Source of the DNA: Clostridia bacterium
GTDB taxonomy: Bacteria > Bacillota > Clostridia > Oscillospirales > CAG-272
Reading direction: 5' to 3'
Assembly (NCBI GenBank): GCA_017398595.1
Contig: JAFQFR010000020.1
Location: 9,196 to 73,195 of the forward strand
DNA: 64,000 nt
Part shown: positions 12,953 to 63,171 of the stretch, piece by piece
How positions within the stretch are numbered: position 1 is the first letter of the stretch
How the letters are laid out: the number at the start of each line of letters is the position of its first letter
The notes under the pieces: model-generated
Told to the model about the DNA's origin: nothing
Databases searched by the model: none
What the model saw: only the letters and a program-made list of their open reading frames with translations
Made by a program: the position numbers and the translations under genes

Positions 12953-12975
12953 GAAATCTTAACATTTTTCGATAA

Positions 12976-13007
12976 AAAAGCACTGCATGAGCTCATGCAG
13001 TGCTTTT
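12976..13007 (-). terminator. Terminator after stalked protein A
   Basis: Perfect palindrome aaaagcactgcatgagctcatgcagtgctttt. Confidence 0.7.
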
Positions 13008-13022
13008 GAAATTACGTTTTAA

Positions 13023-26513: not shown

Positions 26514-26880
26514 GGGGGCGTAAAGGTTTCGACGGGGATTTTGAGGTATGATAAGCGGGTAGAGGTCGGGGATCCTCTCTAAAAGCTCCAACTTAAAATT
26601 AAACGCTAACGATAACGTAGCACTGGCAGCGTAAGCTGTGCCGCTGCTTTTTCAAGCAGCCCGTCAGACCGTTGAGGACCACGGCTTCGGATCTGGCGTC
26701 ATGCAGTGGTAAATGTGCACCGCCCGTTTGCTTTTGAAGCGGTCATAAAGAAAAAAGCTACCAAACCGTTACCCCCGTGCACCGGGGTGCGGCGCGGGAA
26801 ATCTTAAAGGTGTCCTGCACCCGGAGAAAGTTATATCAAGGGATTTTCGGACGGGGGTTCGATTCCCCCCGCCTCCACCA
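26514..26880 (+). ncRNA. ssrA: tmRNA (SsrA)
   Basis: The 5' end GGGGGCGTAAAGGTTTCGACGGGG pairs with the 3' end CGCCTCCACCA, including the G3-U pair. T-arm is GGGGGTTCGATTCCCCC. The tag reading frame is 26605-26634: gct aac gat aac gta gca ctg gca gcg taa, giving ANDNVALAA. Confidence 0.95.
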
Positions 26881-27041: not shown

Positions 27042-27066
27042 CAACTAAATCCACCCTTACGGGTGG

Positions 27067-27170
27067 GTGAAATATTGCTTCGCAATGTGAAATACGCCTG
27101 CGGCGTGTGAAATCGCTGCGGCGGTGGGTGGATTTAATTTCACATTTTGCCGCAAGGCAAAATATTTCAC
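27067..27170. repeat. Phased GTGAAAT heptamer array (3 direct copies at exactly 20-bp spacing, 1 degenerate, 2 inverted)
   Basis: GTGAAAT at 27067, 27087 and 27107. GTGGATT at 27128. ATTTCAC at 27137 and 27164. Each unit carries a different short GC hairpin (attgc-ttc-gcaat, acgcc-tgc-ggcgt, ttgcc-gcaa-ggcaa). Confidence 0.8.
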
Positions 27171-31530: not shown

Positions 31531-31566
31531 GTAACCGTGCGTTACAAAACCACAACCGTGCGTTGT
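31531..31566. promoter_or_regulatory. Two 15-bp palindromes sharing an AACCGTGCGTT core, 21 bp centre to centre, upstream of the ABC operon promoter
   Basis: gtAACCGTGCGTTac (31531-31545) and acAACCGTGCGTTgt (31552-31566). The minus-strand candidate promoter TTGCTT-17-TAAAAT lies immediately downstream toward 31459. Confidence 0.5.
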
Positions 31567-31569
31567 AAC

Positions 31570-31725
31570 AAGTATTTATAATAAAATCTTGTTTTAAAGA
31601 CGGACATGCGCAACCTAAAGCTGCGCTTTAGCTAGCTTTAAAACTCCTTGAAAACCGCGCCCGGTGAGGGCGTCGCGAGACTTGCGGTTTTGCTTTCTGT
31701 CGAAAAACCTTGGTTTTTCGACAGC
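31570..31725 (+). repeat. Structured intergenic repeat, copy A (three-hairpin element)
   Basis: Near-identical to the reverse complement of 43016-43151, apart from an approximately 20-nt internal indel. Stems are GTTTTAAAG/CTTTAAAAC, AAAACCGC/GCGGTTTT and GTCGAAAAACC/GGTTTTTCGAC. Confidence 0.85.
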
Positions 31726-31730
31726 TTCAA

Positions 31731-31763
31731 AAAAAGGTGCTCAACCGTGTTGAGCACCTTTTT
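31731..31763 (-). terminator. Terminator of the giant surface-protein gene
   Basis: aaaaaggtgctcaa-ccgtg-ttgagcaccttttt, with a T run on the minus strand. Confidence 0.8.
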
Positions 31764-31771: not shown

Positions 31772-34700
31772 TTACTTTTCCAGATTTACGCAATAGCGCT
31801 GGAAGAGCGTCGCTACTTCGGCGCGAGTCGCATTGCTGCTCGGGTCGAAGACCTTATTATCCTTGCCCTGCATCAAGCCGTGCATCGTCATGTAGCATAC
31901 GGACTCATATGCCCAATCGGAGATCTCGGCACGGTCGGTGTAGTCGAGCAAGAACATCCACATGCCGGTGAAGCCGCCGCCATTCTTCTGAATGTAGCGG
32001 TACAGCATCGTTGCCATCTGTTCGCGGGTGATGCTGTCATCGGGCGCGAAGGTCGTCGCGTCATAACCCTGTACGATCCCCTCGGATGCCGCCCAGCGAA
32101 TAGCCTCGGCATACCATGTATCCTGATCCACATCCTCAAACCGCATCAGATAGTTGACCACGGGACTGCCCTCAAAGCGCCACAGCATCGTCACAAACAT
32201 CGCGCGGGTCGTCTCTGCACCGGGCATGAAAAGATCATCGGAGCATCCGACCATCAGACCATTGTCGAGGCAGTAATGCACGCCGTCGTGGTACCATTCA
32301 GATCTGTCGAGGTCGGTATAGCCGTACATCGGGCAGGTATTGTCACGCGGGCAAACCTTGACGGTCGCCTTGAACGTCACTTTGATATTGACCTTGCCGG
32401 TCGGCTGCTTGAAGCTGTACGTGCCGTCACCTTTGTCCGTAACAGTTACGGGATCGCCGTTTTTGTCGGTAACAATGATCTCGTCAACCTCATAGCCTGT
32501 ATCGGGAGCGGGGGTAACGGTTACAGTGTCGCCCTTTTCGGGTTTTGCGGGAGTCACGGTCACGTCACCGTTATCGCCGCTATCCACAGTGGGAGGATAG
32601 GTGGTAGTAGTAGACGTATTGCTCGAAACGTAGACACGGGTCCACTTTGCATAAAACGTCTTCGCACCGGTATCCGAAGCGGTGATCTCCGTTACGGGAG
32701 TACCCGTGCAGGCTTCGTTATCGTACCAGCCATCGAAGCTGTAACCGCTTCTCTTGACATTGGTCGGAAGTGTCGCGCCGATACCGTACGTGTACTCGGT
32801 TACATTGCCATCGCGGACCGTGCCGCCGTTTGTAACAAGCGTGACGGAGTAGGTATCAGCCGTCCACTGCACATAAAGGGTAACTTCACAGCCGCCGTTG
32901 CCATTGTCATCGGCAAACGTGAAGGTGTCGCCGCCGCTGTAGCTGTCGCCGCTGCCGTCAGCCTTCGTGTTCCAGCCGGCAAAGGTATGGTATACCCGGC
33001 TCGGCTGATTCGAGGACACCGTGATTGTCACTCCGCCGGTGTAATGGCTACCCGGAGCGTTTTCGCCACCGTTTGCATCATAGGACAGGGTGTTGGCTGC
33101 ATGAAGGATCTTGACATTCTGTGCCTTTTCGCCGACAGCAACGGATTCTGTTACGGTGATGCCGACATTGTCTTTGAGCGAAGCGGTCACCGCTACTTTA
33201 TATGTACCGCCGTCGGAGACGTTGCCGTCCAAACGCAAGACCGCATCGGTTGCACCGTCGATCGGTGTGCCGTCCTTATACCACTGATAGCTGTAATCCA
33301 GTACCTCGTCATTTCTGTTGCTGACTGTTGCCGTCAGGATACGGGTGGAATTACCGGGAACATAGTACTGGTAAGTGTCCGAGATCGCACCGGGTACTTC
33401 CAATGTGATCTTTACAGTCGGCGCAAGAACCTTTCGCTGTACAAACAGCGTATGATCTCCCGCAGTTTCAACAACTGTCAGCTTGCTGATCTTCGTATCC
33501 GTAACATTGCCGCTTTCATCCACCAGATACCAGTTGCTGTCACCGCCGGACAGACCGGTGATCGCAGAGGACGGGAGCTTGCCGTACTTCTCACCGAATG
33601 TTACGGTGATGGGATCGATCGCCGCACCGCCGTTTGCGTTAAACGAAACTGTGTAGGTGTTGGGGCTTACTGTCAGCGTGCCGTCCTGCAAAGTGAACGT
33701 GTAATTGTCGCTGACATCCGTTTCTTCAGAGTCTTTGACCACAGGCGTGCCGGAGATCGTGATGGTGTAAGTGCCTTCTGCGGTAAGATCGGCATCGGCG
33801 CATACCGCCGTGATACCGCTGACCTTAGGACCATCCTCTTCATCGTAACTTTCATCCCAACCGGTGACGGTGTAGGTGTATTCCGGTGCACTGCCGCCCA
33901 CGCTTACGCTCTTGTTGTCTGCCGTGATCGTCAGAGGACGCTTGGCAACCTCGTATGTTACAGAGGCGGTTACGCCATTGTAGGTGATGGAAGCCGTGTA
34001 AGTTCCCGCATTCACAGGATCTGCACTGTACACAATGTCCTCGGAATCAAGCGAGATCTGATCTGTGTATCCGTAGAGAGAAGCGGTATGCCACAGCCCC
34101 TCTGTATAAACAGCATCCTCGGGCGCAACGATCTGTACAAGCGCCACTTTTCCGTCCTTGGGACAGTTATCCTTGGTACAGGTAGCAAAGATAGTGTCGT
34201 TTTCGGTGATGGTCGTACCCAGCGTATAACCGCTTTCGTCAAAGACATGGACGTGCTCCAGCACCGTGAGTCCGCCGGAGATGGGATTGAAGTCGTAATT
34301 GTCGGCAGTCATTCCGTCAGTGTTGACTTCGATGAAGTAATACCCCTCTTTGGACATATCCGGCGTCTCATCATAGGTCAGCACGGGTGTGCCCGTGATG
34401 CCTGCCGTTTCCGCCGTCTCACCGTTTACAAATCCGGTAACAGTGTAGGTAGGCGTGGGGCAATCGTCGCCCACTTCGGCAAACAGATCGTCTGCCGTAA
34501 CGTCCAGCAATACTTTCTCAACGGTTGCTTCCACACAGGCGGGAGTGCTTTCATCGTTGTCGCCCAACGCCTTGTACCACACGTAGTAGGTACCGGCATT
34601 CGTTGCTGTGGGGATGTCGGTGCTCCAGCCGTCCGTGGGAGCAGTTTCGCCGTTATTACTCAGTGCATACTGCATCACGCCGCTGTAAGCAGTGCCGGCA

Positions 34701-37700
34701 GTGACAAGCGCCTGAGACTGTCCGGAGTAAGTAGGATATTCCGGATAAGGTTCTTCTTCCACCTCAGTAGCGAGAACAACATTTATCTTCTCCTCCCACA
34801 CCACATAGTAACTGACCGTCGGAGAATTACCGATCGCCACATCCAGTTCCACGATATCTGCGGCAAGATCGTACGCTTCAAAAACGGAAAATACTGCCTG
34901 CACAAGATTCGTGTTAAAGTTAATGTCATACGACGTATCTTTGCCGAAATTGATAGCTACGGGTATACAAGTCCCCGAAGAATTAAATATCAGCAAGTCT
35001 GTGGGGCCGAATTCCGTCATATTCTCGCCTTTGACCGTAATGATCAGAGGATGCTCTGTGCTGACGGTAAATGTCTTGGTATCGGCGTCGTATGCGGAGC
35101 TGTCGCTGTTGAACGTCACACTCGTGATCTTCGGCACAGCGTATTCCCCGGTATCTTTCACCACATCGTAATATCCGGTTTCCTTGTTATATACAGCACC
35201 GTATCCATCGGCTACCCATTCACCCGGGTGGACTATGAAGGAACCGCCAGTGATGGAGCAAGCGGCGTCAGGTTGGACTGTAACTACATTCTTGAAGGTG
35301 CCGCCGCTGATATTCAGCGTACCGCTAAATGCCCCAACTACACCTTCAAAAATACCGTCCTCGATCTTTGCCGTATTATTAAATGCCAGATACGGCTGGA
35401 AAACTCCGTCTCCAGCGGTATCTACGATGGTCAGCTGGCTATATGCCACAAACTGAGAGAAACCATTTTCTTCTGCGTCAATTACTTTTTTTCCGTTCAG
35501 GTCCAGGGTGAACACGCCGGAGTTGACCGTAAAGTCATATAGCGTAACGTCTTTCAGCAGCTTCAGAACCGCGTTATCCTCTGCGCTCGCATTTTCCAGC
35601 GCGGTCACAGCACTCTCAAGATCGGCGTAGAGCGTCGTCGTGCCGTTGGCGGTCACGGAAGCAGCCGCGTTATCGAGCGTGAGCTCCTTAAAGACTGCTG
35701 TCACAGTGACGTTGCCGGCAGGCATGGTGAAGGTGTACTCGCCGTCCTCGCCCTTGGTGGCGGTCACAGGGGTCTCGCCCTGCTTAACCGTCAGCGTATC
35801 CGGTACATAGCCGCCATCCGGCACGACCGTCACAGTGACGGTAACCCCTGCGGCGGCAAAGTTTTTATCCGCCATGACGAAGCCATTGGTGATACTGTCA
35901 TCCACCGTAACGCTGTATCCGACAGCATACTTCACCGTCTTGGCAGGGGTAAAGTTAGCATAGTCATCCTCGGTGCCGATGGAGGTATAGTAAACGCCGT
36001 AGGCTTCAAAACTGCCGGTCACATAGTCCGCAGGCTCGCTGACAGCCACTTTGTCCGTGCCGATGCCGCTGTACGCTGCGATGGCAGCCGTATTGCCGCT
36101 GATCTCAACGGGGGTGCTGACGGTCAGCATCCCGTTCGTGAAGATGCCGCATAAGCCGCCGCTGATCTTTCCCACCGTCGCGTTTTCCGCAAAGGTCACG
36201 CCGCTGTCCGCGTAGATGCCATAGCCGTATTGAGAGCTGCCGGTTATATCGCCCACTGTACCGCTGATGGTCACGCCACCGGTCGCGAAGATGCCGCAAT
36301 CGTTACCTGTGATGTCACCGTCTACCGTGCCGCTGACGGTCACACTGCCTTCGGCGTAGATACCGAGGCTGCTGCCGGTGATGTCACCCATGGTGCCGCT
36401 GACGGTCACACTGCCGACCGCGCCGATGCCCTTGCCGCCGGTGCCGGTGATCTGATTGGTGCCGATGCCGTAAACAATGAGGTCGCCTTTAGCCTGGGTT
36501 CCGTCGTCGCCGCCGTAATAGATAGCGGCATTCTTATATCCCTTGCCCTCATAGGTGTAGTTGTTGAGGGTCAAGGTATTGGTGTCGGGGTCGTAGGTTG
36601 CCGTACCGCCGTTTGCATCGGTGATAGTCAGCTTTGCGGAGTTGAACTGCTCACCGCCGACCCACAGAGAATATTTTTCTCCCCAGATCGCATAGAGCGT
36701 TATATTTTCCGTTACGTCAACCGTAGTGGTTGTTATCGCTTCACCGTCAGCGCTCAGTGCCCAGCCTGCGAACGCTTTATCCGTAGGCGCGGTGAAGCCG
36801 TTTGCGGGGAGTGTGTATTCGCCCGAAACGTCGGGTACATCATCCATCGTGCCCGTACCGCCGTTTGCGTTAAAGGAAACGGTGTAAGTAGTCGCGGGCG
36901 CCTTCGCCTCAAACACAGCTGTCAAATTGCGGTCAGCACTTGCCGTGAAGGCATAGCTTGCATCGGTGCTGACAGCACTGTCGTTTTCCGTCCACTTGAC
37001 GAAGGTATAACCGTCATTTGCAGTCGTCGTAACGGTAACGGACGCGTTTTCTTCGTACGTGCCGCTGCCTGTAACTGTACCGCCCTCTGCGGGAGATGCG
37101 GTGACGGCTACGGTGTAGGTGGTGGGTTTGGGGTCAGAACCGCCCTCGTTGAAATATTGCGGTGTGGCAGACGCATCGTGATAGACCACCTTACCGTCAA
37201 ACACCGGTGTCTCATGTGTCTTGAGCGTCTGATACCATACCAAATCATCCCCCTCGGATGTAGAACCGTTCAGGAGATAGCATACTTCGCCCGATGCAAA
37301 CTCCTCGGCGGTCTTACCTGTGACGCCGTTATAATCTGCATCTCCGACTGCGCCGTATGATGCGCCTGTTGTGTTATAATAGCAATTTGTCGCCGTTCCG
37401 CTTAAGTAACCGGCAAAATTTCCGAAAGCCCAATTGGAGATTGTGCCTGTTACAAGAATATCGCCATAGTTGTAACAATTCGTAATCGAGCCTGCAAAAG
37501 AACCGACCAAACCGCCGACTTGATTACTACTCGAATTGCTTCCCGATATAATTATGTCGCCGAGACTATAGCAATTTTCAATAACAGCATCACCGCTGGA
37601 TGTGCCGCTTCCTCTTCCGACAATACCGCCAAGAGGATTTCGGTTGGTTGAAACCCACACAATATCGCCTGTATTAACACATTTTTTGACAGTGGAAGCA

Positions 37701-38542
37701 TATGTCATATCACCGATAATACCACCGCCGATGCCTGCAGATAATATTTTACCCTCATTCCTGCAGTCTTCAATCACAGCTGTGCCGCCGCCCACAATTC
37801 CGGCTGCTCTTTCTGATGTGGCTTTTACGGTTGCCTTGTTGACGCAGTTTATAATGCTCCTTTTGGAAGCTGTTCCGCCGTCACTTGTGTAGCCGATAAT
37901 TCCGCCTACCCACGTGCTGCCAAGAATATATGAGTCATCCAAAGTGAGGTCTTTAATTGTAATCGCATTGGATAATGCAACAAATCCAACATACAGATCG
38001 GACGCGGTATCGGTTGACACAAGACCGCTTACGGTTTTGTTATTTCCGTCAAAAATTCCGCACATACGACTACGGCTGGCTCCGATAGGATTCCACTGCA
38101 AAAATGTGCCGGTGTTCAAATCGCCGTTAGCATCAAGAACATTTGTGTTGACGGTAATATCGTTTATCAGTACCGCATTGACTTTAACCTCGGTATATGC
38201 AAAATATTTGGTAGTTGTACCGATAGTTGCCTCATCAACACTCTTTGCAAACCAGTAAAGCTGACCTGCATTCTCGATCGCATAGTAGCCGCTATGCGAA
38301 GCATTTAACTCGGAGTGGTGTGTTTCACTCACCTGCTTCGCAGGCTGATAGTGTGTTGCATCTGCCGAGCAAAATCCGCTTGCATTATATGTTCCCGCAC
38401 AGTCTGTTGCGTCGCAAGGGGTGGTTGTGCTGCTTGCGGTTTCTGCACTTGCCGACAGCGTAAAGCCCGGCAGCATGCCCACCACCATGATGATAGCGAG
38501 CAGCATGCTCAGTATTCTTTTTGAAAATTTTGTTTTTGTCAT
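31772..38542 (-). CDS. Giant S-layer-homology-anchored surface protein (GLUG repeats, Listeria-Bacteroides repeats, beta-helix-like repeats, 3 C-terminal SLH domains)
   Basis: 2256 aa. Signal peptide MTKTKFSKRILSMLLAIIMVVGMLPGFTLSASA. GLUG-like GG(I/L)VG...I.NCYN.GDI repeats. YTVSFNANGG...F.GW repeats. The C-terminus has FEDVDQDTWYAEAIRWAASEGIVQGY and two further SLH units. Confidence 0.9.
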   Translation of the reverse strand: MTKTKFSKRILSMLLAIIMVVGMLPGFTLSASAETASSTTTPCDATDCAGTYNASGFCSADATHYQPAKQVSETHHSELNASHSGYYAIENAGQLYWFAKSVDEATIGTTTKYFAYTEVKVNAVLINDITVNTNVLDANGDLNTGTFLQWNPIGASRSRMCGIFDGNNKTVSGLVSTDTASDLYVGFVALSNAITIKDLTLDDSYILGSTWVGGIIGYTSDGGTASKRSIINCVNKATVKATSERAAGIVGGGTAVIEDCRNEGKILSAGIGGGIIGDMTYASTVKKCVNTGDIVWVSTNRNPLGGIVGRGSGTSSGDAVIENCYSLGDIIISGSNSSSNQVGGLVGSFAGSITNCYNYGDILVTGTISNWAFGNFAGYLSGTATNCYYNTTGASYGAVGDADYNGVTGKTAEEFASGEVCYLLNGSTSEGDDLVWYQTLKTHETPVFDGKVVYHDASATPQYFNEGGSDPKPTTYTVAVTASPAEGGTVTGSGTYEENASVTVTTTANDGYTFVKWTENDSAVSTDASYAFTASADRNLTAVFEAKAPATTYTVSFNANGGTGTMDDVPDVSGEYTLPANGFTAPTDKAFAGWALSADGEAITTTTVDVTENITLYAIWGEKYSLWVGGEQFNSAKLTITDANGGTATYDPDTNTLTLNNYTYEGKGYKNAAIYYGGDDGTQAKGDLIVYGIGTNQITGTGGKGIGAVGSVTVSGTMGDITGSSLGIYAEGSVTVSGTVDGDITGNDCGIFATGGVTISGTVGDITGSSQYGYGIYADSGVTFAENATVGKISGGLCGIFTNGMLTVSTPVEISGNTAAIAAYSGIGTDKVAVSEPADYVTGSFEAYGVYYTSIGTEDDYANFTPAKTVKYAVGYSVTVDDSITNGFVMADKNFAAAGVTVTVTVVPDGGYVPDTLTVKQGETPVTATKGEDGEYTFTMPAGNVTVTAVFKELTLDNAAASVTANGTTTLYADLESAVTALENASAEDNAVLKLLKDVTLYDFTVNSGVFTLDLNGKKVIDAEENGFSQFVAYSQLTIVDTAGDGVFQPYLAFNNTAKIEDGIFEGVVGAFSGTLNISGGTFKNVVTVQPDAACSITGGSFIVHPGEWVADGYGAVYNKETGYYDVVKDTGEYAVPKITSVTFNSDSSAYDADTKTFTVSTEHPLIITVKGENMTEFGPTDLLIFNSSGTCIPVAINFGKDTSYDINFNTNLVQAVFSVFEAYDLAADIVELDVAIGNSPTVSYYVVWEEKINVVLATEVEEEPYPEYPTYSGQSQALVTAGTAYSGVMQYALSNNGETAPTDGWSTDIPTATNAGTYYVWYKALGDNDESTPACVEATVEKVLLDVTADDLFAEVGDDCPTPTYTVTGFVNGETAETAGITGTPVLTYDETPDMSKEGYYFIEVNTDGMTADNYDFNPISGGLTVLEHVHVFDESGYTLGTTITENDTIFATCTKDNCPKDGKVALVQIVAPEDAVYTEGLWHTASLYGYTDQISLDSEDIVYSADPVNAGTYTASITYNGVTASVTYEVAKRPLTITADNKSVSVGGSAPEYTYTVTGWDESYDEEDGPKVSGITAVCADADLTAEGTYTITISGTPVVKDSEETDVSDNYTFTLQDGTLTVSPNTYTVSFNANGGAAIDPITVTFGEKYGKLPSSAITGLSGGDSNWYLVDESGNVTDTKISKLTVVETAGDHTLFVQRKVLAPTVKITLEVPGAISDTYQYYVPGNSTRILTATVSNRNDEVLDYSYQWYKDGTPIDGATDAVLRLDGNVSDGGTYKVAVTASLKDNVGITVTESVAVGEKAQNVKILHAANTLSYDANGGENAPGSHYTGGVTITVSSNQPSRVYHTFAGWNTKADGSGDSYSGGDTFTFADDNGNGGCEVTLYVQWTADTYSVTLVTNGGTVRDGNVTEYTYGIGATLPTNVKRSGYSFDGWYDNEACTGTPVTEITASDTGAKTFYAKWTRVYVSSNTSTTTTYPPTVDSGDNGDVTVTPAKPEKGDTVTVTPAPDTGYEVDEIIVTDKNGDPVTVTDKGDGTYSFKQPTGKVNIKVTFKATVKVCPRDNTCPMYGYTDLDRSEWYHDGVHYCLDNGLMVGCSDDLFMPGAETTRAMFVTMLWRFEGSPVVNYLMRFEDVDQDTWYAEAIRWAASEGIVQGYDATTFAPDDSITREQMATMLYRYIQKNGGGFTGMWMFLLDYTDRAEISDWAYESVCYMTMHGLMQGKDNKVFDPSSNATRAEVATLFQRYCVNLEK

Positions 38543-38688
38543 AGTACCAAATCTCCTATGGGGATCATTTCTTAGTGATAGACTTGTTCACACGCCCTAT
38601 AGGGCTTTTTTCTTTTTTTCATTCATATTTATATACTCCTATATTGCGACCAAAGAGGAGACCCCTTTGTGCCGTGGTTTACCTATAT

Positions 38689-39372
38689 TTAAAGTTCGCC
38701 TTCCAGATAGGCAAACATATCTTCTACCGTCTGCTTTGCGATCGCGGGGTAATCAAACTGCCCTACAAAGGCGATCGCTTCCTCTATTTTTTCCTCGGGG
38801 ATCCTGTACACCCGCAGACTCGTCTCCAAAAAGCGGTGTACCTTTCGCTCTATGGTAAAATACATATCGCACGGCAGTACCATATATTCGCGGATAATGC
38901 CGCCCGTGGCAAGTTCGAGTTCAAAAAAGTCCTTAGTATCAAAGTCCGGCAGATACTCCCGAAAGATCACCTGCACCAGCTTTTCCGTAACCGCACTGTG
39001 GATCATCGCCGCACTCTGCGGCATGGAATATGCCGCGCCATACAGGCTGCGGATCGCCTCGTCGCTCTCCGCAAGATAAAGCTGCAATGTGGTCTCTGCG
39101 GCGTAGTACAGCACGGGGTCCTCTGTCACGCCTGCAAGCATCTTTTTGGCAGCGGAAAACTGCCTGTCAAGCACGAAGCCGACCAACTCGCACAGGATCT
39201 GTTCCTTACTGCCGAAGGAACGGTTCATTGCGCTGATATGGACGCCCGCGGCGTCCGCGATCTCCCGCGTGGAAGACCTTTCATACCCCTTTTCCAAAAA
39301 CAGTTTTGCCGCCGCGTGCAGTACCCGGGAATGAAATACTGCGCGTTCTTGTTCGGATTTTACATTCGCCAT
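38689..39372 (-). CDS. TetR/AcrR-family transcriptional regulator
   Basis: 227 aa with the N-terminal HTH AAAKLFLEKGYERSSTREIADAAGVHISAMNRSFGSKEQIL. Confidence 0.9.
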   Translation of the reverse strand: MANVKSEQERAVFHSRVLHAAAKLFLEKGYERSSTREIADAAGVHISAMNRSFGSKEQILCELVGFVLDRQFSAAKKMLAGVTEDPVLYYAAETTLQLYLAESDEAIRSLYGAAYSMPQSAAMIHSAVTEKLVQVIFREYLPDFDTKDFFELELATGGIIREYMVLPCDMYFTIERKVHRFLETSLRVYRIPEEKIEEAIAFVGQFDYPAIAKQTVEDMFAYLEGEL

Positions 39373-39546
39373 GGCTGCCCTCCTGTGGTTGTGAGAACCG
39401 CAAACCGAATCGCGGTTCTTTTTGGGTATATTTTACCATGCCGCCTATTTTATATCAATAGATTCTGCAAAAAACCGTCTTGAAAAATAAAAAGTTTTAT
39501 TGATAATTCCGACCGCGATGCGCATACTACTTTCGGGGGTGACAAC

Positions 39547-40863: not shown

Positions 40864-40918
40864 AAAGCGGCGGAAAATGTGGTACACTGAGGATAGTTTT
40901 CTATCGGAGGGTTCCACA

Positions 40919-41878
40919 TTGAAACGATTTCTTTTGATTTTGGCAGCCTGTTCGGCGGTGCTGCTTGCTTCGTGTGACAAAGAAGCAAAGGCACCCGAGC
41001 TGAAACCGGGTGAAGTCTCCGCCGAAACCACAGCGGCAGACGCAAACGGTGATGCATCGGGCACGATCGTGATCGAGGATGAACGCATCACGATCACTTC
41101 CCTTGAAAACTGGCAGGCATTTAACCACGACGGCAATTTTTCGGACAACTGCCTGGAGTTTTTGCGCAACTTCATCCAAAACGACTCGGAATATTTCGAG
41201 TTTAACACCGTACACCTTGGCGAGTGGGAGATCATTCGCGACCCCGAGATCTACGGCTTCGACCTCGCGTTTAACTTTACGGTGACGGCATCCGAGCTTG
41301 ACACCATCCCCGTCGGCAACTATCAAACGATCGTGACCGACGCTGTAGACTGCACCATGCAGTTTGTACAGTCGCCGCGTGTGGAAAGCACGGTCACAGC
41401 ACCCGTTTCCGCGGCAACGGAGACGGTCTCGGCATGGCTGACCATCACGCTTTGTTACGATTTCTGCGACTACGGCAAGTGGGAAAGCGATCCGTTCAAG
41501 CATTATCTGTGTACACGCTACGCGGATGCGTCGGGCAAGCTGCTGTATGCCGATTTTGAGACGCTGGCAAAAGAAAAATTCGGCGCCGACGTCCAAAAAG
41601 AGGATTATTTATCGAATGCGCAATTGTATATCGAAAATAACAAGCTGTATATCCAATCGGAGGGCGGCAACATGGAGCCCTGCTTTGACATTGTGAGTGA
41701 AACGGTCGCGGACGGTGTTTCCACGGTCACGGTACAATTCTACGCCGACTGCAACAAGTTTTTGCAGTCGTACAAGGCAGCATACCGCATTGACAGCGCA
41801 GATCGGTTCCTCGGCTGTGAGATCTTAGAAGTCTCGCCGTACAAACCGTACTGTCTGCATTCGGTATATGGAAACTAA
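40919..41878 (+). CDS. Lipoprotein of unknown function
   Basis: In-frame TTG at 40919, 7 nt after GGAGGG (40906-40911). Lipobox in KRFLLILAACSAVLLASC. I recognised no other motif. Confidence 0.65.
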   Translation: MKRFLLILAACSAVLLASCDKEAKAPELKPGEVSAETTAADANGDASGTIVIEDERITITSLENWQAFNHDGNFSDNCLEFLRNFIQNDSEYFEFNTVHLGEWEIIRDPEIYGFDLAFNFTVTASELDTIPVGNYQTIVTDAVDCTMQFVQSPRVESTVTAPVSAATETVSAWLTITLCYDFCDYGKWESDPFKHYLCTRYADASGKLLYADFETLAKEKFGADVQKEDYLSNAQLYIENNKLYIQSEGGNMEPCFDIVSETVADGVSTVTVQFYADCNKFLQSYKAAYRIDSADRFLGCEILEVSPYKPYCLHSVYGN

Positions 41879-41886
41879 ATGAAGAT

Positions 41887-41921
41887 AAAAACAGCCGAGA
41901 GCCCGGGCTCTCGGCTGTTTT
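41887..41921. terminator. Bidirectional terminator between convergent genes
   Basis: aaaacagccgagagcccgggctctcggctgttttt. Confidence 0.8.
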
Positions 41922-41933
41922 TATGTACTTGGC

Positions 41934-42899
41934 TTAGTTCTTTTTCTTTTTGAGAACGATTACAACGATTGCAACGACTACAACGATCGCAGTAACAATG
42001 CCGATGATGAGACCGACATTAGAGCCGCCCTCCTCTGCGGGAGCGGTAGATGCTGCGGGAGCAGTCGTGGTGGGCGCAGCGGGCGCTGCGGTTGTAACTG
42101 CGGGAGCCTCTGTCGTCTCCACGGGTGCTTCGGTGGTTTCTGCGGGAGCAGCCGTCGTAGTTACAGCGGGAGCTGCGGTAGTCTCTGCGGGAGCAGCGGT
42201 GGTAACTACAGCAGGTGCTGCGGTCGTAACCACGGGAGCCTCGGTCGTAACAACAGGTGCGTTGGTTACAGCGGGAGCATTCTCATCGCCGTAGGTCAGC
42301 ACAGTACCGCCGAGGTTCTCGATGGTGAAGGTCTCTTGTGCAGCCTTGGAAAGGATCGCAGTGCCGCCGAGCTCAACGACGATCTTGTAGTGATAGTCAT
42401 TGCCGGGCTTGGTCTGCAGAATAACCGAATCCGTTACGGTAAGCGTCGTACCGAGACCGACCTTGATGGTGTTCTGATTGTTCTCCTGGAACAGAATGAT
42501 GTCATCAAAAACAACATTGCTCTGGAGCGTCAGCGTTGCACCGGTCGCCATCTTGAATGCGCAGGCAGGGTTCTCTGCGGGTTCGGGATTCTTGTAGTCA
42601 ACGCCGTTGTACACGCTGGTGATGGTCAGCGTATCGGACATTGCGGGCATGGTGTAGCTTGCGCCGAGATATGCTTTACCAACGGCAACAAGCGTACCGC
42701 CGTTTTGCAGCAGACTCATAACGCCGGCATCCTCAAAAGTCTTCCAGGACTTCTTGGGCGTATCGGGCGTCAGACCGTCATACGCGTCGTTTCCGCCCCA
42801 GCTGACATATGCAACCGTTTCATCCGCAGCAAACGCGGTCAGCGAAAAAGTGCACAACAAAAGCAGAGCTGCAAGCATAACAGAAAGAATTTTTTTCAT
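41934..42899 (-). CDS. Secreted, membrane-tethered protein C (short beta-helix-like domain, T/A/P stalk, TM helix and KKKKN)
   Basis: Start trimmed to ATG 42899 (MKKILSVMLAALLLLCTFSLTAFA, GGAGG RBS). Tail is EEGGSNVGLIIGIVTAIVVVVAIVVIVLKKKKN. Confidence 0.85.
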   Translation of the reverse strand: MKKILSVMLAALLLLCTFSLTAFAADETVAYVSWGGNDAYDGLTPDTPKKSWKTFEDAGVMSLLQNGGTLVAVGKAYLGASYTMPAMSDTLTITSVYNGVDYKNPEPAENPACAFKMATGATLTLQSNVVFDDIILFQENNQNTIKVGLGTTLTVTDSVILQTKPGNDYHYKIVVELGGTAILSKAAQETFTIENLGGTVLTYGDENAPAVTNAPVVTTEAPVVTTAAPAVVTTAAPAETTAAPAVTTTAAPAETTEAPVETTEAPAVTTAAPAAPTTTAPAASTAPAEEGGSNVGLIIGIVTAIVVVVAIVVIVLKKKKN

Positions 42900-42970
42900 A
42901 CGTACCTCCTTGATCATAGGCAAATCTGCCAATATCAATTTTATTATAATATAAGGAAAAAACCGAATCA

Positions 42971-43012
42971 ATGAAAAAACCACTGCAACGATGTGCAGTG
43001 GTTTTTTCATTT
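42971..43012. repeat. 42-bp direct repeat, left copy (terminator-hairpin sequence)
   Basis: atgaaaaaaccactgcaacgatgtgcagtggttttttcattt is identical to 43166-43207. Confidence 0.9.
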
Positions 43013-43015
43013 AAG

Positions 43016-43151
43016 GCTGTCGAAAACCAAGGGTTTTCGACAGGATACAAAACCGCAAGTCTCGCGACGCCCTCACCGGGCGCGGTTTTCAAGGAGTTTT
43101 AAAGCCGGCGCATGTCCGTCTTTAAAACAAGATTTTTATTATAAATACTTT
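43016..43151 (-). repeat. Structured intergenic repeat, copy B (inverted relative to copy A)
   Basis: Its reverse complement aligns with 31570-31725 and has the same three stems. Confidence 0.85.
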
Positions 43152-43165
43152 TTTGACAAGCTGTA

Positions 43166-43207
43166 ATGAAAAAACCACTGCAACGATGTGCAGTGGTTTT
43201 TTCATTT
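43166..43207 (-). terminator. Terminator of protein E gene; also the right copy of the 42-bp direct repeat
   Basis: aaaaaaccactgca-acga-tgtgcagtggtttttt lies 7 nt after the stop of the 43214-44551 gene. Confidence 0.8.
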
Positions 43208-43213: not shown

Positions 43214-44551
43214 TTACTTGGTGATGGTTGCGGTGGAAGTTGCGCCGTCCCATGCTACGGTGCCGCCGAGGGTTTCAGCGACAAAACGTACGGGCATGTA
43301 AGTGCGATCATTTTCGATGAACGCGGGGGAATCGAGTGCTACGCTCTTGCCGTTTACGGTTGCATTTGCCGCACCGACCGTAATCTTGATCTCGGTGTCA
43401 GCCGTTTTGAGCGTTGCAGTGGAGGTTGCACCGTCCCAAGCGATCTCAGCACCGAGAGCCTCGGCTACATAACGTACAGGAAGCATGGTGCGCTCGTTGC
43501 GGATGATGGGAGCAACGTCCATGGTCTTGGTTTCGCCGTTGAGCGTGTAGGTGGTCTTGCCAAGCGTCATCTTGAGTTCCACTGCAGGACCGGTGGGAAT
43601 CTCGTCAACATAGTTTACCTTGTCGAAGAAGAGAGAAATGATCTTTGCATCTACGTTGGGAGTAGCATACAAAGTAGCCGTACCGTCAACTACGAATTCA
43701 GCAATAGCTGCTTCCACGCTCTTGGATGCATTGCCTACTGCACCGCCGGAGAAGTTAACGGTAGTCTTGCCCATTACGTTGTTCAGCACGAGACCGCCGA
43801 TCGTACCACCGGTGATGTTTACAACGCAGTTACCGTTCAGACGACGGGTGCCGTCTCCGCCGGTATAAACATTGGTAATGTTGCCGCCCTTGATATTGAT
43901 CTCTCCATGGCCGCCATAGTTGCCGTTAACGCACGCGCCGTAAACAGATCCGATTTCGCCACCCTCAACAGTGATATGTGAGGTACCGGTGAACTCGTAA
44001 TCACCTGCGCTGCGGCTGTGACCTGCGATCAGATAATAGTTACCGCTCTTGATCGTAACATCCGAATCCTTGTCAAATACCGCCGCATCGTCAAGAGGCA
44101 ACTGATAACCACCAACGATATACGCCTTGGTGCCGGCGTCAATGATGCCTTCGCCCATGATCAGCTTGTTGTAGCGTGCAACGATCAAGTGGGTAGTGCC
44201 TGCCGCATACGAGAAGGTAATATTCTCAAACGTGGTGGAACCGGGACCGCTGAGGAACCAGCGATTGTACTTTCCGTGTGAGAACACATACTTGCCGCCG
44301 GTGATCACGATGTTGCCGACATGCTCGGGCTCGTAATACTCTTCTGCGCAGGTATACGTATCTACGATGATGACTTTACCGCCGTCTGTAGCGATCTTAT
44401 TGATCGCTTCGGTCATGTTGCCAAGGGGCTTGTCAGCCGCAGAGCCGTCACCGGTACCGCCGTCATTGACATACACGTCTGCTGCGGATGCCGCTACTGC
44501 GAGCATAACGCAAAGAATCGCTGCGAGGAAAATGCCAAGATACTTTTTCAT
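43214..44551 (-). CDS. Secreted beta-helix-like protein E with two C-terminal copper-amine-oxidase-N-terminal-like (stalk) domains
   Basis: Start trimmed to ATG 44551 ([23 protein letters not shown]). The N-terminal 330 aa are paralogous to protein D. The C-terminus has TLNGETKTMDVAPIIRNERTMLPVRYVAEALGAEIAWDG and a second similar unit. Confidence 0.85.
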   Translation of the reverse strand: MKKYLGIFLAAILCVMLAVAASAADVYVNDGGTGDGSAADKPLGNMTEAINKIATDGGKVIIVDTYTCAEEYYEPEHVGNIVITGGKYVFSHGKYNRWFLSGPGSTTFENITFSYAAGTTHLIVARYNKLIMGEGIIDAGTKAYIVGGYQLPLDDAAVFDKDSDVTIKSGNYYLIAGHSRSAGDYEFTGTSHITVEGGEIGSVYGACVNGNYGGHGEINIKGGNITNVYTGGDGTRRLNGNCVVNITGGTIGGLVLNNVMGKTTVNFSGGAVGNASKSVEAAIAEFVVDGTATLYATPNVDAKIISLFFDKVNYVDEIPTGPAVELKMTLGKTTYTLNGETKTMDVAPIIRNERTMLPVRYVAEALGAEIAWDGATSTATLKTADTEIKITVGAANATVNGKSVALDSPAFIENDRTYMPVRFVAETLGGTVAWDGATSTATITK

Positions 44552-44587: not shown

Positions 44588-45919
44588 TTATTTCTTTTTC
44601 TTAACATATACTACCACGATCACTGCGACAACGACTACAACCAGAGCGATACCGATGATCAAACCGATATTAGAGCCGCCATCCTCTGCGGAAGTAGTAG
44701 GAGCTGCGGTGGTCGTTGCGGGTGCTGCGGTAGTAACCGCAGGTGCCTCGGCAGTCTCTATAGGAGCGGCAGTGGTCACTGCGGGTGTTGCAGTCGTTTT
44801 TGCAGGAGCTGCGGTGGTCACTACGGGTGCTGCGGTGGTCACTGCGGGAGCTGCGGTGGTCGCTGCGGGAGCCGCGGTGGTCGCTGCGGGAGCTGCGGTG
44901 GTCGCTGCGGGGGCTGCGGTGGTCGCTGCGGGAGCTGCGGTCTGTGCGGGCGTTTCATCCGGGATCGCACTGACATAGTTGACCTTGTCAAAGAAGAGCG
45001 AAATGATCTTTGCATCTACATCGGCAGTTGCATTCAACGTTGCCGTACCATCAGTAACGAACATTGCTATTGCAGGCTCGACCGTCTTTTCTGCGTTGGC
45101 AACAGAACCGCCGGAGAAGTTGACCGTGGTCTTACCCATAACATTGTTGAGAGAAAGGAGCGTGACCATGCCGCCGCTGATGTTGACAGTGCAATCACCG
45201 TCGAGTCGGCGGGTTGCATCACCGGCAGTACGAAGATTGTTGATCGTGCCGCCCTTGATATTGATCACAGCATTGCCGGAATAGTTACCGTTAACGCTCG
45301 CACCGTATACAGTTGCTATTTCGCCGCCTTCTACAGTGATGTGCGCTGTTCCGACGAAAGAATACTCAGAGTTGCCGCGACTATGACCTGCTACCAGCCA
45401 ATAGTTGCCACTCTTAACCGTAACATCGGAATCCAGATCAAATACAGCTGTATCGGTCAAGGGAACCTGATAACCGCCGATAACGTACGCTTTACCGCTT
45501 GCATCAAAGGACAGTCCTTCACCAAGAACCAACTTGTTATACTGTGCGATGATCAGCGAAGTAGTGCCCGCACCGTACTCAAAAGACATGTTCTCAAAAG
45601 TGGTGGAACCGGGACCGCTGAGGAACCAGCGATTGTACTGCCCCTGTGAGAACACATACTTGCCGCCGGTGATCACGATGTTGCCGACATGCTCGGGCTC
45701 GTAATACTCTTCTGCGCAAGTGTAGGTGTCAACGATGATGACCTTACCGCCGTCCGCACCGATCTTATTGATCGCATCGGTCATGCTGCCGAGCGGCGCA
45801 TCCGCCGAGGAACCGTCGCCGGTACCGCCATCGTTGACGTAAACATCTGCTGCGGATGCCGCTACCGCAAGCATCATGCAAAGCAGTGCCGCCAGAAAAA
45901 TGCCAAGAAACTTTTTCAT
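44588..45919 (-). CDS. Secreted, membrane-tethered beta-helix-like protein D (paralog of E with T/A/P stalk, TM helix and KKKK)
   Basis: Start trimmed to ATG 45919 ([31 protein letters not shown]). Tail is [32 protein letters not shown]. Confidence 0.85.
44803..44948. repeat. In-frame 24-bp tandem repeat (about 6 units) encoding AAPAATTA in the stalk of protein D
   Basis: ggagctgcggtggtcgctgcggga-type units. The peptide is [36 protein letters not shown]. Confidence 0.85.
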
Positions 45920-46170
45920 ATGTAACCTCCAAAATAATAAATTTTTCATATTATTAAGATTTTCGGATCGCTTGCAAGAAAATTCTATCAAAATGAATCT
46001 TGCAAATCTATAGACCATATCATTGAGATTATTGCAAATATCAAAAAAGTTTACCCGGTTGCACAATTTGATCCAATTTTTATTGTACAATATTTTTTGT
46101 TGATTTTCAACAATTTTTCGGAAGATTTCAACAATTTTTTCATCAAAAATGAAATATTTTTGTATAACCA

Positions 46171-47268
46171 CTATTTTTTCTTTGCAGCAAATTTTGCATC
46201 CGCCATTGCGGCATATTTTTTAAAAATACGCATCTCTTTCGGATCGTAGGGGCGGAAATTCGGACGGAACAGCTCATGCTGCCACTGCGTAAAGTCGTAG
46301 TGCTCGCCCTGTCCGTTTTCCCATCTGCGCCAGATCGCTTCCCAAGGCTCATTGTTTTGGCTCTTACCGACGACAAGACCCCAGTTGAAGCATGCGACCT
46401 TTTCGAGATAGAAGAGGGGCAGATGCGTTTGTACCTTATTGCCCTGCATTCTGTGCAGCCACTCGGTATTGAAAATAGGGCGGTCAAACTCCTTGAGAAT
46501 ATCCAGGATATCGACAGATACCTGGAAGTTGCGGTAATCGTGGTAACTAATAACATCCGACAGCTCGATGGCACGCATATCCCAGGGATGGATCTTCTCT
46601 TCACGCTCGGGACCGATCGACCACGCGTCTGCAGTCAGAGGCTGAATCGGGTCGTGCGAACGTGCGATCTCGAAGAAACGCTCCATCCACGGCACGCTGA
46701 GCATCTGCCGACGGCTGTTGCCGATCTCATTGAACATGTTCCAAACGATAACACGCTCGTCCTTTGCATATTTGCCGACGATCTCGTCCACCATCTGGCA
46801 GAAATGCTCTGCGTACTCCGGTACATCCAGCGGAGACTTACCATGATCGGCAAGAACATCATGCGGCGAACGCGCCATGCCGCCGTGGTAGCCCATATCT
46901 ACATGCTGCGGGCCGAGCTCGGGGAGCTTGTACTCTGCCATCGGAACGGTACAGTCGTTACCGAAGCAGAACATTACGCCGATCTCATTCTCTGCACAGA
47001 TCTGCAGATAAGTTTCGATATACTCCATGAAAGTATCGTGCTGACGTCCCCAAACTTCATACGGCAGGATCGAGCGAACAGCATTAAAGCCATACTCGTG
47101 TGCAAGCTTCATTTCCTCACGGAAACATTTTTCAATACGGTCGTGCTCAAGCTCCTGCCATTGTTCGATGCGGTTTACGGCGCCGTAAGCGACATAGTTG
47201 AAACCGCGGATCCAAGGACGGCTGTTATACCATTCCCAGGCTCTTTCTTTTGACCATTTTTCACCCAT
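46171..47268 (-). CDS. TIM-barrel glycoside hydrolase (clan GH-A / GH5-like)
   Basis: Start trimmed to MGEKWSKERAWEWY at 47268 (AAGGGGG RBS). Contains a WNMFNEIGNS acid/base-type NE motif. Family assignment is tentative. Confidence 0.65.
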   Translation of the reverse strand: MGEKWSKERAWEWYNSRPWIRGFNYVAYGAVNRIEQWQELEHDRIEKCFREEMKLAHEYGFNAVRSILPYEVWGRQHDTFMEYIETYLQICAENEIGVMFCFGNDCTVPMAEYKLPELGPQHVDMGYHGGMARSPHDVLADHGKSPLDVPEYAEHFCQMVDEIVGKYAKDERVIVWNMFNEIGNSRRQMLSVPWMERFFEIARSHDPIQPLTADAWSIGPEREEKIHPWDMRAIELSDVISYHDYRNFQVSVDILDILKEFDRPIFNTEWLHRMQGNKVQTHLPLFYLEKVACFNWGLVVGKSQNNEPWEAIWRRWENGQGEHYDFTQWQHELFRPNFRPYDPKEMRIFKKYAAMADAKFAAKKK

Positions 47269-59738: not shown

Positions 59739-59744
59739 CACTAC

Positions 59745-59915
59745 AAATGGTAGAGGCGCGTTGTGTCGGGAGTAGCCATGATGTCAAAGATTTTGCAGAT
59801 CGTTGTCATGGTAAAAGAGGCAGACGCCGAAGGCGGCAAAGCAAATTGCCGTTCTGGTCGTACATAATAAGATGTGTATGACTGTCGCTTGTAAAAGCGG
59901 AGGGCTATCGGTTAA
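59745..59915 (+). promoter_or_regulatory. Lysine riboswitch (L-box) aptamer
   Basis: Conserved L-box strings in order: GTAGAGGCGC, GGGAGTAG, GCCGAAGG, CTGGTC, GACTGTC, GGAGGGCTATC. Lies upstream of dapA-dapB-lysA. Confidence 0.85.
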
Positions 59916-61657: not shown

Positions 61658-62953
61658 ATGATTTACTCCAATCTCTCGGTCAACGAGGCAGGACATCTCA
61701 CCATCGCAGGTCTGGATGCCGTCGCCCTCACAGAAGAATACGGCTCCCCGCTGATGGTGCTCGACGAAGGTCGCGTGCGCGAGCACTGCCGCACCTATGT
61801 GGAAAGCATGCAAAAATATCTCCCCGCAGGCTCCATGCCCCTCTACGCGGGCAAGGCATTCTGCTTTAAAGGACTGTACAAGATCATCGAAAGTGAAGGC
61901 ATGGGCGCGGACGTTGTCTCCCCCGGTGAGGTATACACCGTCTCGGCTGCAGGCTTCCCTATGGAGCATGTATATTTCCACGGAAATAATAAGACCGACG
62001 AGGACATCGCCCTCGCCATCGAAAAAAAACTCGGTTGCTTTGTCGCCGACAACCGCGACGAGCTGTGCAGCATTGACCGCATCGCACGCGAAAACGGCAT
62101 TACCCAGCGCGTGCTGCTCCGCCTCACCCCCGGTATCGACCCGCACACGCATGCCAAGATCAGCACGGGCAAGGTAGATTCCAAGTTCGGCACGGCGATC
62201 GAAACCGGACAAGCCATGGAGCTTGTCGAATTTGCGCTGTCGCTCAAAAATATCGATCTGGAAGGCTTTCATTGCCACATCGGTTCGCAGATCTTTGATT
62301 CTTCGCCCTTCTGCGATGCGGCGGACATCATGTTGCAGTTCATCGCCGATGTCAAGGCAAAGTTCGGTTACGCTGTCAAGGTGCTCAACCTCGGCGGCGG
62401 CTACGGCGTTCGCTATGTCGAGTCACACCCCGAGATCGACATTGCCGATAATATTCGTCAGCTCGGCGAGCATATCGACGCAGACTGCAAAAAACTCGGC
62501 ATCACACCCCCGCAGATCCGTCTCGAGCCCGGCCGCAGCATCGTTGCCGACTGCTGCACTACCCTTTACAAGATCGGCAGCGTCAAGACCATCACGGGCT
62601 ACAAGAGCTATGTTTCGATCGACGGCGGCATGACCGATAACCCGCGTTATGCCCTCTACGGCTCGGAATACACCGTGCTCAACGCTTCGCGCGCAAACGA
62701 GAAAGCTGACTTCGTCTGCACCGTCGCAGGACGCTGCTGCGAAAGCGGCGACCTTATCCAAGAGGATGTGGCGATCGCCAACCCCAAACGCGGCGATATT
62801 CTCGCGGTGCTCTGCACGGGTGCCTATAACTACTCGATGGCATCCAACTATAACCGCATCTGCCGCCCTGCAGTCGTCATCGTCAAAGACGGAAAAACAC
62901 GCCTCGGCATCCGCAGAGAGACGTTTGAAGATCTGATTAGAAACGATATGTAA
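61658..62953 (+). CDS. lysA: Diaminopimelate decarboxylase
   Basis: 431 aa with YAGKAF (PLP Lys), HCHIGSQI, LNLGGGYG, EPGRSIVA and CESGD. Confidence 0.95.
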   Translation: MIYSNLSVNEAGHLTIAGLDAVALTEEYGSPLMVLDEGRVREHCRTYVESMQKYLPAGSMPLYAGKAFCFKGLYKIIESEGMGADVVSPGEVYTVSAAGFPMEHVYFHGNNKTDEDIALAIEKKLGCFVADNRDELCSIDRIARENGITQRVLLRLTPGIDPHTHAKISTGKVDSKFGTAIETGQAMELVEFALSLKNIDLEGFHCHIGSQIFDSSPFCDAADIMLQFIADVKAKFGYAVKVLNLGGGYGVRYVESHPEIDIADNIRQLGEHIDADCKKLGITPPQIRLEPGRSIVADCCTTLYKIGSVKTITGYKSYVSIDGGMTDNPRYALYGSEYTVLNASRANEKADFVCTVAGRCCESGDLIQEDVAIANPKRGDILAVLCTGAYNYSMASNYNRICRPAVVIVKDGKTRLGIRRETFEDLIRNDM

Positions 62954-62956
62954 AAA

Positions 62957-62993
62957 CAAAAGGCTTCTCATCGAGAAGCCTTTTGTTTTTGTT
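62957..62993 (+). terminator. lysA terminator
   Basis: aaaaggcttctc-atcg-agaagcctttt followed by gtttttgttt. Confidence 0.8.
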
Positions 62994-63171
62994 TGCTTAT
63001 CTTTCCAATACCGTTCAATACATAAAAAGCAGCCGACAGTGTCCCATATACTCTGTCGGCTGTTCTTCTTTACATATATATTATACCACAAAATTCCTAA
63101 AAAATCAAGACTTGTTCTGATGCATCGGTTTTGCTATAATCCTACTTACACACATACAAGGGGGACACAAT

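Follow-up and report, generated by a model that had tools for sequence, protein, structure and literature searches.

The 314-nt spacer between two minus-strand genes for secreted proteins in a 64,000-nt stretch of the Clostridia bacterium contig JAFQFR010000020.1 (positions 9,196 to 73,195; hereafter the window) harbors a 152-nt element, the predicted gene of a structured small RNA (sRNA), that is enclosed on both sides by identical copies of a Rho-independent terminator. Alignment with related genomes shows the 152 nt to be an insertion: the terminator is found once in the relatives and twice in the window, exactly flanking the inserted sequence. The reading that we consider fairly probable is that a terminator-less sRNA cassette lands at terminator hairpins, and that landing in the same direction as the resident gene duplicates the hairpin like a target-site duplication sized by structure. 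In minus-strand order, the locus comprises gene 2 (43214-44551), the left target copy of the terminator, T(1) (43165..43207), element B (43013..43164), the right target copy, T(2) (42970..43012), a promoter-like site (42943..42971), gene 1 (41934..42899) and a palindromic terminator (41885-41924).

The duplicated sequence, AATGAAAAAACCACTGCAACGATGTGCAGTGGTTTTTTCATTT, is a perfect direct repeat of 43 nt at 42970-43012 and 43165-43207 (43/43 identity, period of 195 nt), one base longer than the 42 reported in an earlier note on this DNA; by chance, 0 such 43-nt matches are expected (100 shuffles). Each 43-mer folds at -25.9 kcal/mol (z = -8.4) into a perfect 18-bp stem with a 6-nt loop, bordered by an A-run and a T-run, and the duplicated unit takes in the entire self-complementary stretch of the hairpin (42 nt) and one further nucleotide. 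On the minus strand, both copies are recognized as intrinsic terminators by the terminator scan, with TTTTTTCATT as T-rich tail. T(1) begins 6 nt past the stop codon of gene 2, in line with the proposal that the hairpin is the strong terminator of that gene. By its position, T(2) now appears to terminate the small RNA and to insulate gene 1, for which a promoter-like site of its own (TTGATT-17-TATAAT, promoter scan) is retained past T(2).

The arrangement is reproduced in four independent assemblies from ENA, which were retrieved through exact-protein look-ups of both flanking genes. The loci L001/L005 span the region in full and show no difference from the window. L002 extends from gene 2 over T and the element (with one single-nucleotide polymorphism) into the second T, L006 reaches from the element over the second T into gene 1, and the contigs of L003 and L004 stop within the T-element-T region. 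An assembly artefact is ruled out because the four assemblies agree; moreover, 43 nt is shorter than the assembler k of 141. The contig ends of L002, L003, L004, L006 and L007, from three other assemblies, fall in or beside this region, which could reflect either repeat-induced breaks in the assembly graph or strain-level presence/absence polymorphism of the insertion. Across the 418 kb of sequence fetched, exact direct repeats of at least 18 nt that contain a hairpin and lie 40-1500 nt apart flank this RNA gene; the sole other match is an 824-nt gene-conversion tract in L033, in which a 7-bp stem is incidental. This tract (12836-13659 and 14232-15055 of L033) is a perfect direct repeat joining two adjacent paralogous surface-protein genes and resembles a recent gene conversion.

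Syntenic loci of relatives were obtained via the orthologues of gene 1 and of the nearby DAO/Rieske gene. Two of them (L038 and L039) represent the empty site that the earlier note suggested looking for, with a single terminator and no element: a gene 2-like C-terminus (...AWDGATSTATITK, stop) is followed by one terminator, a promoter, the gene 1 orthologue, a 316-aa gene and the DAO gene. The spacer between gene 2 and gene 1 measures 109 and 117 nt in these loci versus 314 nt in the window, and the excess attributable to the insertion is by this comparison 195 nt, or 43 + 152. The L039 hairpin, AAAAACCACTGTAGATTTCTACAGTGGTTTTTT (CCACTGTAGA...TCTACAGTGG), is clearly orthologous to that of the window, and the terminator is kept in both relatives with compensatory changes. 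The flank to the left of T(1) and the flank to the right of T(2) align to the two flanks of this single hairpin, and the promoter-like site past T(2) has its equivalent in the region that follows it. As L038 and L039 contain one terminator and no element, the doubled terminator is, judged from these alignments, the derived state. No relative was found in which the terminator is doubled and the element missing. Gene 1 and the element are altogether absent from more distant relatives (L033-L037), as is the SLH/TetR block described below.

These flanks also bear on a second explanation offered in the earlier note, in which a 195-bp unit of terminator plus element was tandemly duplicated and then partly lost. 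Such an origin would fit the spacing of exactly 195 nt and the recurrence of a 10-nt motif, TTTATTATAA, in register at 42940-42949 and 43135-43144. This is the sole in-register similarity outside the 43 nt (11-nt exact matches are reported near the motif in a self-comparison of the window). However, a single copy of the element is present, and the 70 nt past T(2) have their orthologue in the promoter and 5' untranslated region of gene 1 at the empty sites and bear no relation to the element. Furthermore, the motif represents the -10 boxes of two distinct promoters and is separated from the 43-nt repeat by 20 dissimilar nucleotides. A tandem duplication with partial loss is thus highly improbable as the origin of the doubled terminator.

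Element B spans the 152 nt between the two terminator copies and, as noted earlier, consists of a repeat element plus 14 nt, ACAGCTTGTCAAAA (43151-43164, minus strand), that are absent from copy A, a second copy in the window, upon alignment of the two. The element is best read, on the basis of a modeled fold, as encoding a structured small RNA that belongs to a new family, rather than as a generic repeat or a classical MITE (a miniature transposable element with inverted repeats). This reading is supported by a conserved fold with covariation, the absence of an Rfam match and the absence of terminal inverted repeats. Read on the minus strand, the element has a promoter-like match (ATTACA-18-TATAAT; promoter scan), of which the TATAAT box (43138-43143) lies approximately 7 nt ahead of the first helix and is conserved in copies A and B and in a copy from another species (L009, see below); the -35 box is weak. 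The predicted fold then comprises helix P1 (GUUUUAAAG...CUUUAAAAC, 43096-43128), a single-stranded linker CUCCUUGA (43089-43096), a three-way or branched region P2 with GGUGA and GCGA loops (43049-43089), and helix P3 (CUGUCGAAAACC...GGUUUUCGACAG, 43017-43043) followed by CCUU, all on the minus strand. The folded region measures 120 nt. The element has no terminator of its own and runs directly into T(2); a terminator is present after the RNA gene in all three copies (A, B and L009). Its left end reads ACAGCTTGTC.../AAGTATTT... and its right end ...CGACAGCCTT.

The fold is considerably more stable than that of shuffled sequences (z = -8.1 for copy B and -6.5 for copy A), and the covariance model scores both copies well (147 bits for copy B, 125 bits for copy A). 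In a model-based alignment of five sequences, 97.5% of the cells at 35 pairs are paired, and six pairs, located in P1, P2a and P3, are changed on both sides. Only one out of 500 shuffles attains the observed pairing and covariation, and slid controls fall to 37-52% paired. With five sequences, the covariation is supportive, not conclusive. G-U pairs occur on the proposed RNA strand. Neither copy A nor copy B matches an Rfam 15 family at the gathering threshold or by a local E-value search, and the sub-threshold Rfam matches come from the terminator hairpins. That the element is a cis-regulatory leader of gene 1 does not hold generally and was rejected: no gene follows copy A on the same strand, and gene 1 keeps its own promoter past T(2). 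The 14 nt ACAGCTTGTCAAAA (43151-43164) resemble the right end of copy A plus the A-tract of its terminator (ACAGCTTCAAAAAAA), like a copied junction of a right end and a left end. A terminal direct repeat, in which the left end equals the element's own right end, was considered as evidence for a circle or tandem junction and rejected as not significant (p = 0.057 for copy B and 0.42 for L009).

Alternatively, the element could be a non-autonomous transposon at the DNA level, of the MITE type or the palindrome-associated transposable element (PATE) type, that is mobilized in trans, its hairpins being recognition structures for a transposase and its transcription being incidental. We consider this quite unlikely. 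It would account for the presence/absence polymorphism at two sites and for the subterminal hairpins near both ends, and hairpins formed by single-stranded DNA would preserve covariation equally well. Yet terminal inverted repeats and a conserved target motif are both missing (to the left of the copies stand CATT, TTAT and GTAA). The duplication is variable in length and hairpin-sized instead of fixed, and only two copies occur in 64 kb, with none in approximately 170 kb from relatives. Moreover, all three copies have the same orientation to the terminator and a conserved TATAAT box at the right distance, while G-U pairs on the proposed RNA strand likewise speak for an RNA. More specifically, the short fixed target-site duplication typical of MITEs is not observed (43 nt for copy B, 29-31 nt for L009 and 0-2 nt for copy A), nor are terminal inverted repeats. 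A PATE derived from IS200/IS605 elements is not indicated either, given the dissimilar left flanks (..CATT, ..TTAT, ..GTAA) and the long duplications at two of the three copies.

Copy A (31566..31729, plus strand), identified by alignment to copy B and with the covariance model, has the opposite orientation and shares with copy B the -10 box, all three helices and an identical core of 57 nt. Its P1 loop holds an extra 21 nt (31612-31632) that form a perfect 7-bp hairpin (CUAAAGC-UGC-GCUUUAG) and are missing from copy B and L009. Copy A sits at the 5' foot of a resident bidirectional terminator (31731..31763, plus strand by the terminator scan; -21.6 kcal/mol), which it appears to use, and is convergent with the gene of a 2256-aa SLH protein. 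The empty site is seen in L032, where the DAO protein is 93% identical and the sequence ...ACAACCGCACGTTGTAAAAAAAGTGGCTCAACTGCGTTGAGCCACTTTTT... is unbroken: the 164 nt of copy A are inserted exactly where the A-tract of the terminator begins, and the flanks, contiguous in L032, are approximately 93% identical. The terminator pre-exists in L032, with compensatory stem changes. As the earlier note stated, copy A shows no equivalent long duplication (0-2 nt), and its hairpin is single. A decayed upstream copy of this hairpin, suggested by AACCGTGCGTT repeats at 31534-31565, was rejected, as these repeats are already present in the empty site. The block at 31772-39500, with the genes for the 2256-aa SLH/Flg_new protein and a TetR protein, is variable among the relatives: the SLH gene encodes 1598 aa in L032, and the SLH/TetR block is gone between the ABC transporter and DAO genes in L033-L037.

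The flanks of further copies, which the earlier note proposed to examine, were informative in one different species. In L009, from a metagenome-assembled genome (MAG) named 'Eubacteriales bacterium', an RNA gene of 149 nt lies downstream of tsf between two copies of ATCCCGAGGCGAATGCCTCGGGATTTTTT (509-537 and 689-717), and the adjoining bases extend the duplication to approximately 31 nt (29-31 nt). The two copies of this terminator differ by one T within the T-run, and its sequence is unrelated to the terminator duplicated in the window. The RNA itself shows compensatory changes in P2a (GCCC/GGGC to GCGC/GCGC) and P3 (CUGUCG/CGACAG to CGUUCG/CGAACG). In L040 (EF-Ts 86% identical), a single, unrelated terminator follows tsf without an sRNA, which makes it a weak empty site for L009. 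A diverged member in L031 (7437-7512; 46 bits), with a covarying P1 (GUUUACAAGG...CCUUGUAAAC), is truncated by the contig end and lies beside Flg_new/Cu_amine_oxidN1 genes. All four family members adjoin genes for cell-surface proteins (Cu_amine_oxidN1, SLH, Flg_new).

Exact-pattern scans gave one true match in the genome collection, L009, and no match in the metagenome collection, viral contigs, plasmids or phages with these strict patterns; the diverged L031 member indicates that the RNA family is broader than such scans could detect. Within the 64-kb window, a covariance-model search with the filters off returned only copies A and B; a match at 62953-63064 was rejected, as it consists merely of two ordinary terminators. 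No further copy is present at orthologous sites or elsewhere in approximately 170 kb from relatives, the other members being those of L009 and L031. The element is missing at both sites from the closer relatives and present elsewhere in a more distant species, and this patchy distribution fits mobility.

In the three copies with both ends readable, on which all conclusions about the junctions rest, the element ends on its 3' side in P3 plus CCUU, CUUC or GUUC, immediately next to the 5' foot of a resident intrinsic terminator: CAGCTTC|AAAAAAAGGTGCTC for copy A, CAGCCTT|AAATGAAAAAACC for copy B and ACGGTTC|ATCCCGAGG for L009. All three are oriented to be transcribed into this terminator, which in each case belongs to a protein-coding gene. 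Copy A, convergent with its neighbor gene, shows no duplication, while the two co-directional copies, B and L009, have the terminator on both sides.

The similar surroundings of the two duplicated cases raise the question of whether they descend from one T-sRNA-T arrangement upstream of a gene 1-family gene, in which gene conversion keeps the hairpins identical and from which L038 and L039 lost the sRNA and one T by recombination between repeats. Indeed, the next gene downstream of copy B and of the L009 copy is in each case a member of the gene 1 family (56% identity), and 43-nt direct repeats can delete precisely to a single T. The genes further upstream differ, however (gene 2 versus tsf), and the hairpins are unrelated between the two genomes and yet identical within each. 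Furthermore, the closer syntenic relatives lack the element that a more distant species has, and L033 and L037 lack gene 1 altogether. We hold a common ancestral arrangement to be improbable. An obligatory linkage of the sRNA to gene 1-family genes was likewise rejected, the paralogue loci L024-L031 having no upstream sRNA.

In the interpretation that we favor, the element would be a mobile or horizontally spread cassette for a trans-acting small RNA that captures resident terminators. If it lands convergently with the neighbor gene, as with copy A, one bidirectional terminator would serve both transcripts and no duplication would result. In the case of co-directional landing (copy B and L009), breaks would arise at both feet of the hairpin and be joined to the element's ends, after which gap filling would copy the entire hairpin to each side. 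The length of the duplication would then be set by the hairpin (43 nt here, approximately 31 nt in L009) and not by the enzyme. The outcome would be three insulated units: gene 2 with a T, the sRNA with a T, and gene 1 with its own promoter. A more specific version, in which an enzyme or repair route recognizes hairpins or cruciforms rather than sequence and joins the cassette at both feet of an extruded terminator hairpin, is a tentative proposal that we rate as possible but less likely than not to be correct. The enzyme and the mechanism of insertion are in any case what we infer from the copies at hand. The suggestion of the earlier note that an insertion generated an unusually long target duplication is therefore strengthened by the empty sites and by the duplication in L009, while its mechanistic part stays conjectural and does not extend to copy A, which was inserted without one.

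Several observations weigh against the interpretation of a mobile sRNA cassette. The duplication is seen in just two of the three copies with both junctions readable, and it is not obligatory, because copy A was inserted at the foot of a hairpin without it. No transposase, integrase or cas gene is found within approximately 10 kb according to the gene tables, the annotated neighbors being surface proteins, DAO/Rieske, TetR, the SLH protein and ABC transporters. Element B has no terminal inverted repeats, and the sole inverted repeats at its borders are the terminator hairpins. The hairpins could act at the DNA level instead of as RNA. The empty sites of copy B could in principle be secondary deletions, since direct repeats permit precise loss, and the gene 1-family neighbor shared by copy B and L009 could mean shared ancestry and not independent insertion. 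Lastly, the exact-pattern scans of the genome and metagenome collections are too strict to size the family, as the more diverged L031 member illustrates.

One further possibility separates the insertion from the duplication: the cassette would have been inserted beside a single terminator, and a later local rearrangement (slippage, unequal exchange or template switching) would have copied the terminator across it. Selection would have kept this copy, since the sRNA needs a terminator and gene 1 needs shielding from read-through. Copy A is an example of an insertion at a hairpin foot without duplication, it is plausible that a terminator downstream would be selected for where the sRNA is co-directional, and the two L009 terminators differ by one T in the T-run. 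Nonetheless, such a course requires a non-tandem duplication of 43 nt exactly over a 152-nt insert, and twice independently with the boundaries of a whole terminator. Neither a T-X nor an X-T intermediate is seen, and no other hairpin duplications occur across the 418 kb. This two-step origin appears unlikely to us, albeit somewhat less so than the transposon or the ancestral arrangement discussed above.

A literature search yielded no account of a hairpin-sized duplication of a whole terminator. The closest mechanistic analogy is the acquisition of spacers by CRISPR systems, in which Cas1-Cas2 attacks both borders of a repeat and gap filling duplicates it. There, as here, the insert comes to lie between two identical palindromic units of roughly 30-45 nt. 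Unlike in CRISPR arrays, the insert is a predicted RNA gene of 152 nt instead of a spacer of approximately 30-40 nt, and there is a single unit without array, leader or nearby cas genes; the insert thus exceeds the 25-50 nt used to define repeat-spacer units. Cruciform formation is not needed for the recognition of CRISPR repeats in the systems tested (PMC6698737), and for this reason the analogy covers the product and not a shared mechanism. Group IIC introns target terminator stem-loops by structure (PMC1702495). Like these introns, all copies described here are located at terminator hairpins of protein-coding genes (three out of three copies with readable junctions). In contrast to them, the element is only 150 nt long and contains neither a group II ribozyme nor a reverse-transcriptase open reading frame (ORF): no Rfam match to a group II ribozyme is obtained at the gathering or E-value threshold, and the 152-nt element has no ORF. 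Moreover, group IIC introns do not duplicate the terminator, whereas the copy B and L009 insertions do.

The insertion sequences of the IS1202 group make unusually long target-site duplications of 16-28 bp (PMC10132070). As with transposons in general, including this group, the insertion studied here is flanked by a direct duplication of a target that is single-copy in the empty sites. Yet the duplication of 43 or approximately 31 nt tracks the size of the hairpin and equals a whole intrinsic terminator, and the element, at 150 nt, has no transposase and no terminal inverted repeats. Correia, ERIC, RUP and bcr1 elements are small intergenic repeats or MITEs that carry promoters or terminators. 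The element resembles them in being short, non-coding, structured, intergenic and insertion-polymorphic, and they too can be transcribed and affect their neighbors. It differs from them by the absence of terminal inverted repeats, a low copy number, the lack of a short fixed target-site duplication and a three-hairpin fold that covaries across species. In Campbell-type integration at the 3' ends of transfer RNA and transfer-messenger RNA (tmRNA) genes, direct repeats with a terminator-like stem flank the insert in a similar manner. However, a Campbell-type element brings its own fixed att copy, while the repeats observed here are resident terminators that differ from locus to locus and thus cannot have been brought by the element.

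With respect to the flanking genes, gene 1 encodes a secreted, membrane-anchored protein of 321 aa with a Thr/Ala/Pro-rich repeat linker, as judged from its translation; no Pfam domain was detected in it, and the orthologues in the empty-site loci (P0006 and P0008) are 74% identical with synteny kept. Gene 2 encodes a secreted protein of 445 aa with two Cu_amine_oxidN1 domains (Pfam PF07833, 3.7e-55). The ribosome-binding site (RBS) of gene 1, UCAAGGAG at 42906-42913, is complementary over 8 bp to the sRNA linker CUCCUUGA (43089-43096). Similarly, the linker in L009, CUCCUUGA(AAA) at approximately 606-617, is complementary over 11 bp to the RBS of the downstream gene, UUUUUAAGGAG, at approximately 820-830. 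The empty-site orthologues carry UUUGGAGG at the position of the RBS instead. Although the single-stranded CUCCUUGA(AAA) segment is invariant, its core is a generic anti-Shine-Dalgarno sequence, and therefore the complementarity is not significant on its own. Speculatively, base complementarity might let the linker pair with ribosome-binding sites, that of gene 1 among them.

The surroundings of the locus show some additional features. Gene 1 and the convergent gene at 40877-41878 are separated by a perfect 40-nt palindrome, ATAAAAACAGCCGAGAGCCC/GGGCTCTCGGCTGTTTTTAT (41885-41924), that constitutes a bidirectional terminator. It is kept in L032, L033 and L037 with compensatory stem changes; since L033 and L037 lack gene 1, the palindrome comes immediately after the gene 2 orthologue in these two. 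Gene 2 and the gene at 44588-46171 are tandem paralogues (72-77% identity over 180-300 nt). Tandem repeats of 21 nt at 42040-42270 and 44680-44960 encode Thr/Ala/Pro-rich linkers in gene 1 and in this paralogue, respectively. Elsewhere in the window, a tmRNA gene (26514-26880; tag ANDNVALAA) precedes a Gut-1 RNA (27042-27118; 95 bits) by approximately 160 nt, both downstream of smpB, and a lysine riboswitch aptamer is located at 59743-59915 on the plus strand (75.9 bits).

On the evidence of the modeled fold, these copies constitute a new family of structured RNAs in uncultured Clostridia (Oscillospiraceae-like MAGs), which recurs beside genes for cell-surface proteins and has a single-stranded segment resembling an anti-Shine-Dalgarno sequence. 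Little is understood of how the sRNA genes of bacteria arise and move. For two copies of a single sRNA gene, the sites can be seen here both with and without the insert, and a whole terminator was doubled by the insertion in two species. If that holds generally, sRNA genes can act as minimal mobile cassettes that parasitize resident terminators, and terminator hairpins would be structural integration targets beyond group IIC introns. Target duplications could then also be sized by the structure of DNA, in a way that is mechanistically like the duplication of CRISPR repeats. Should the structure-directed pathway be true, sRNA genes would be able to spread across loci and species, gaining a terminator automatically while leaving that of the host gene intact.

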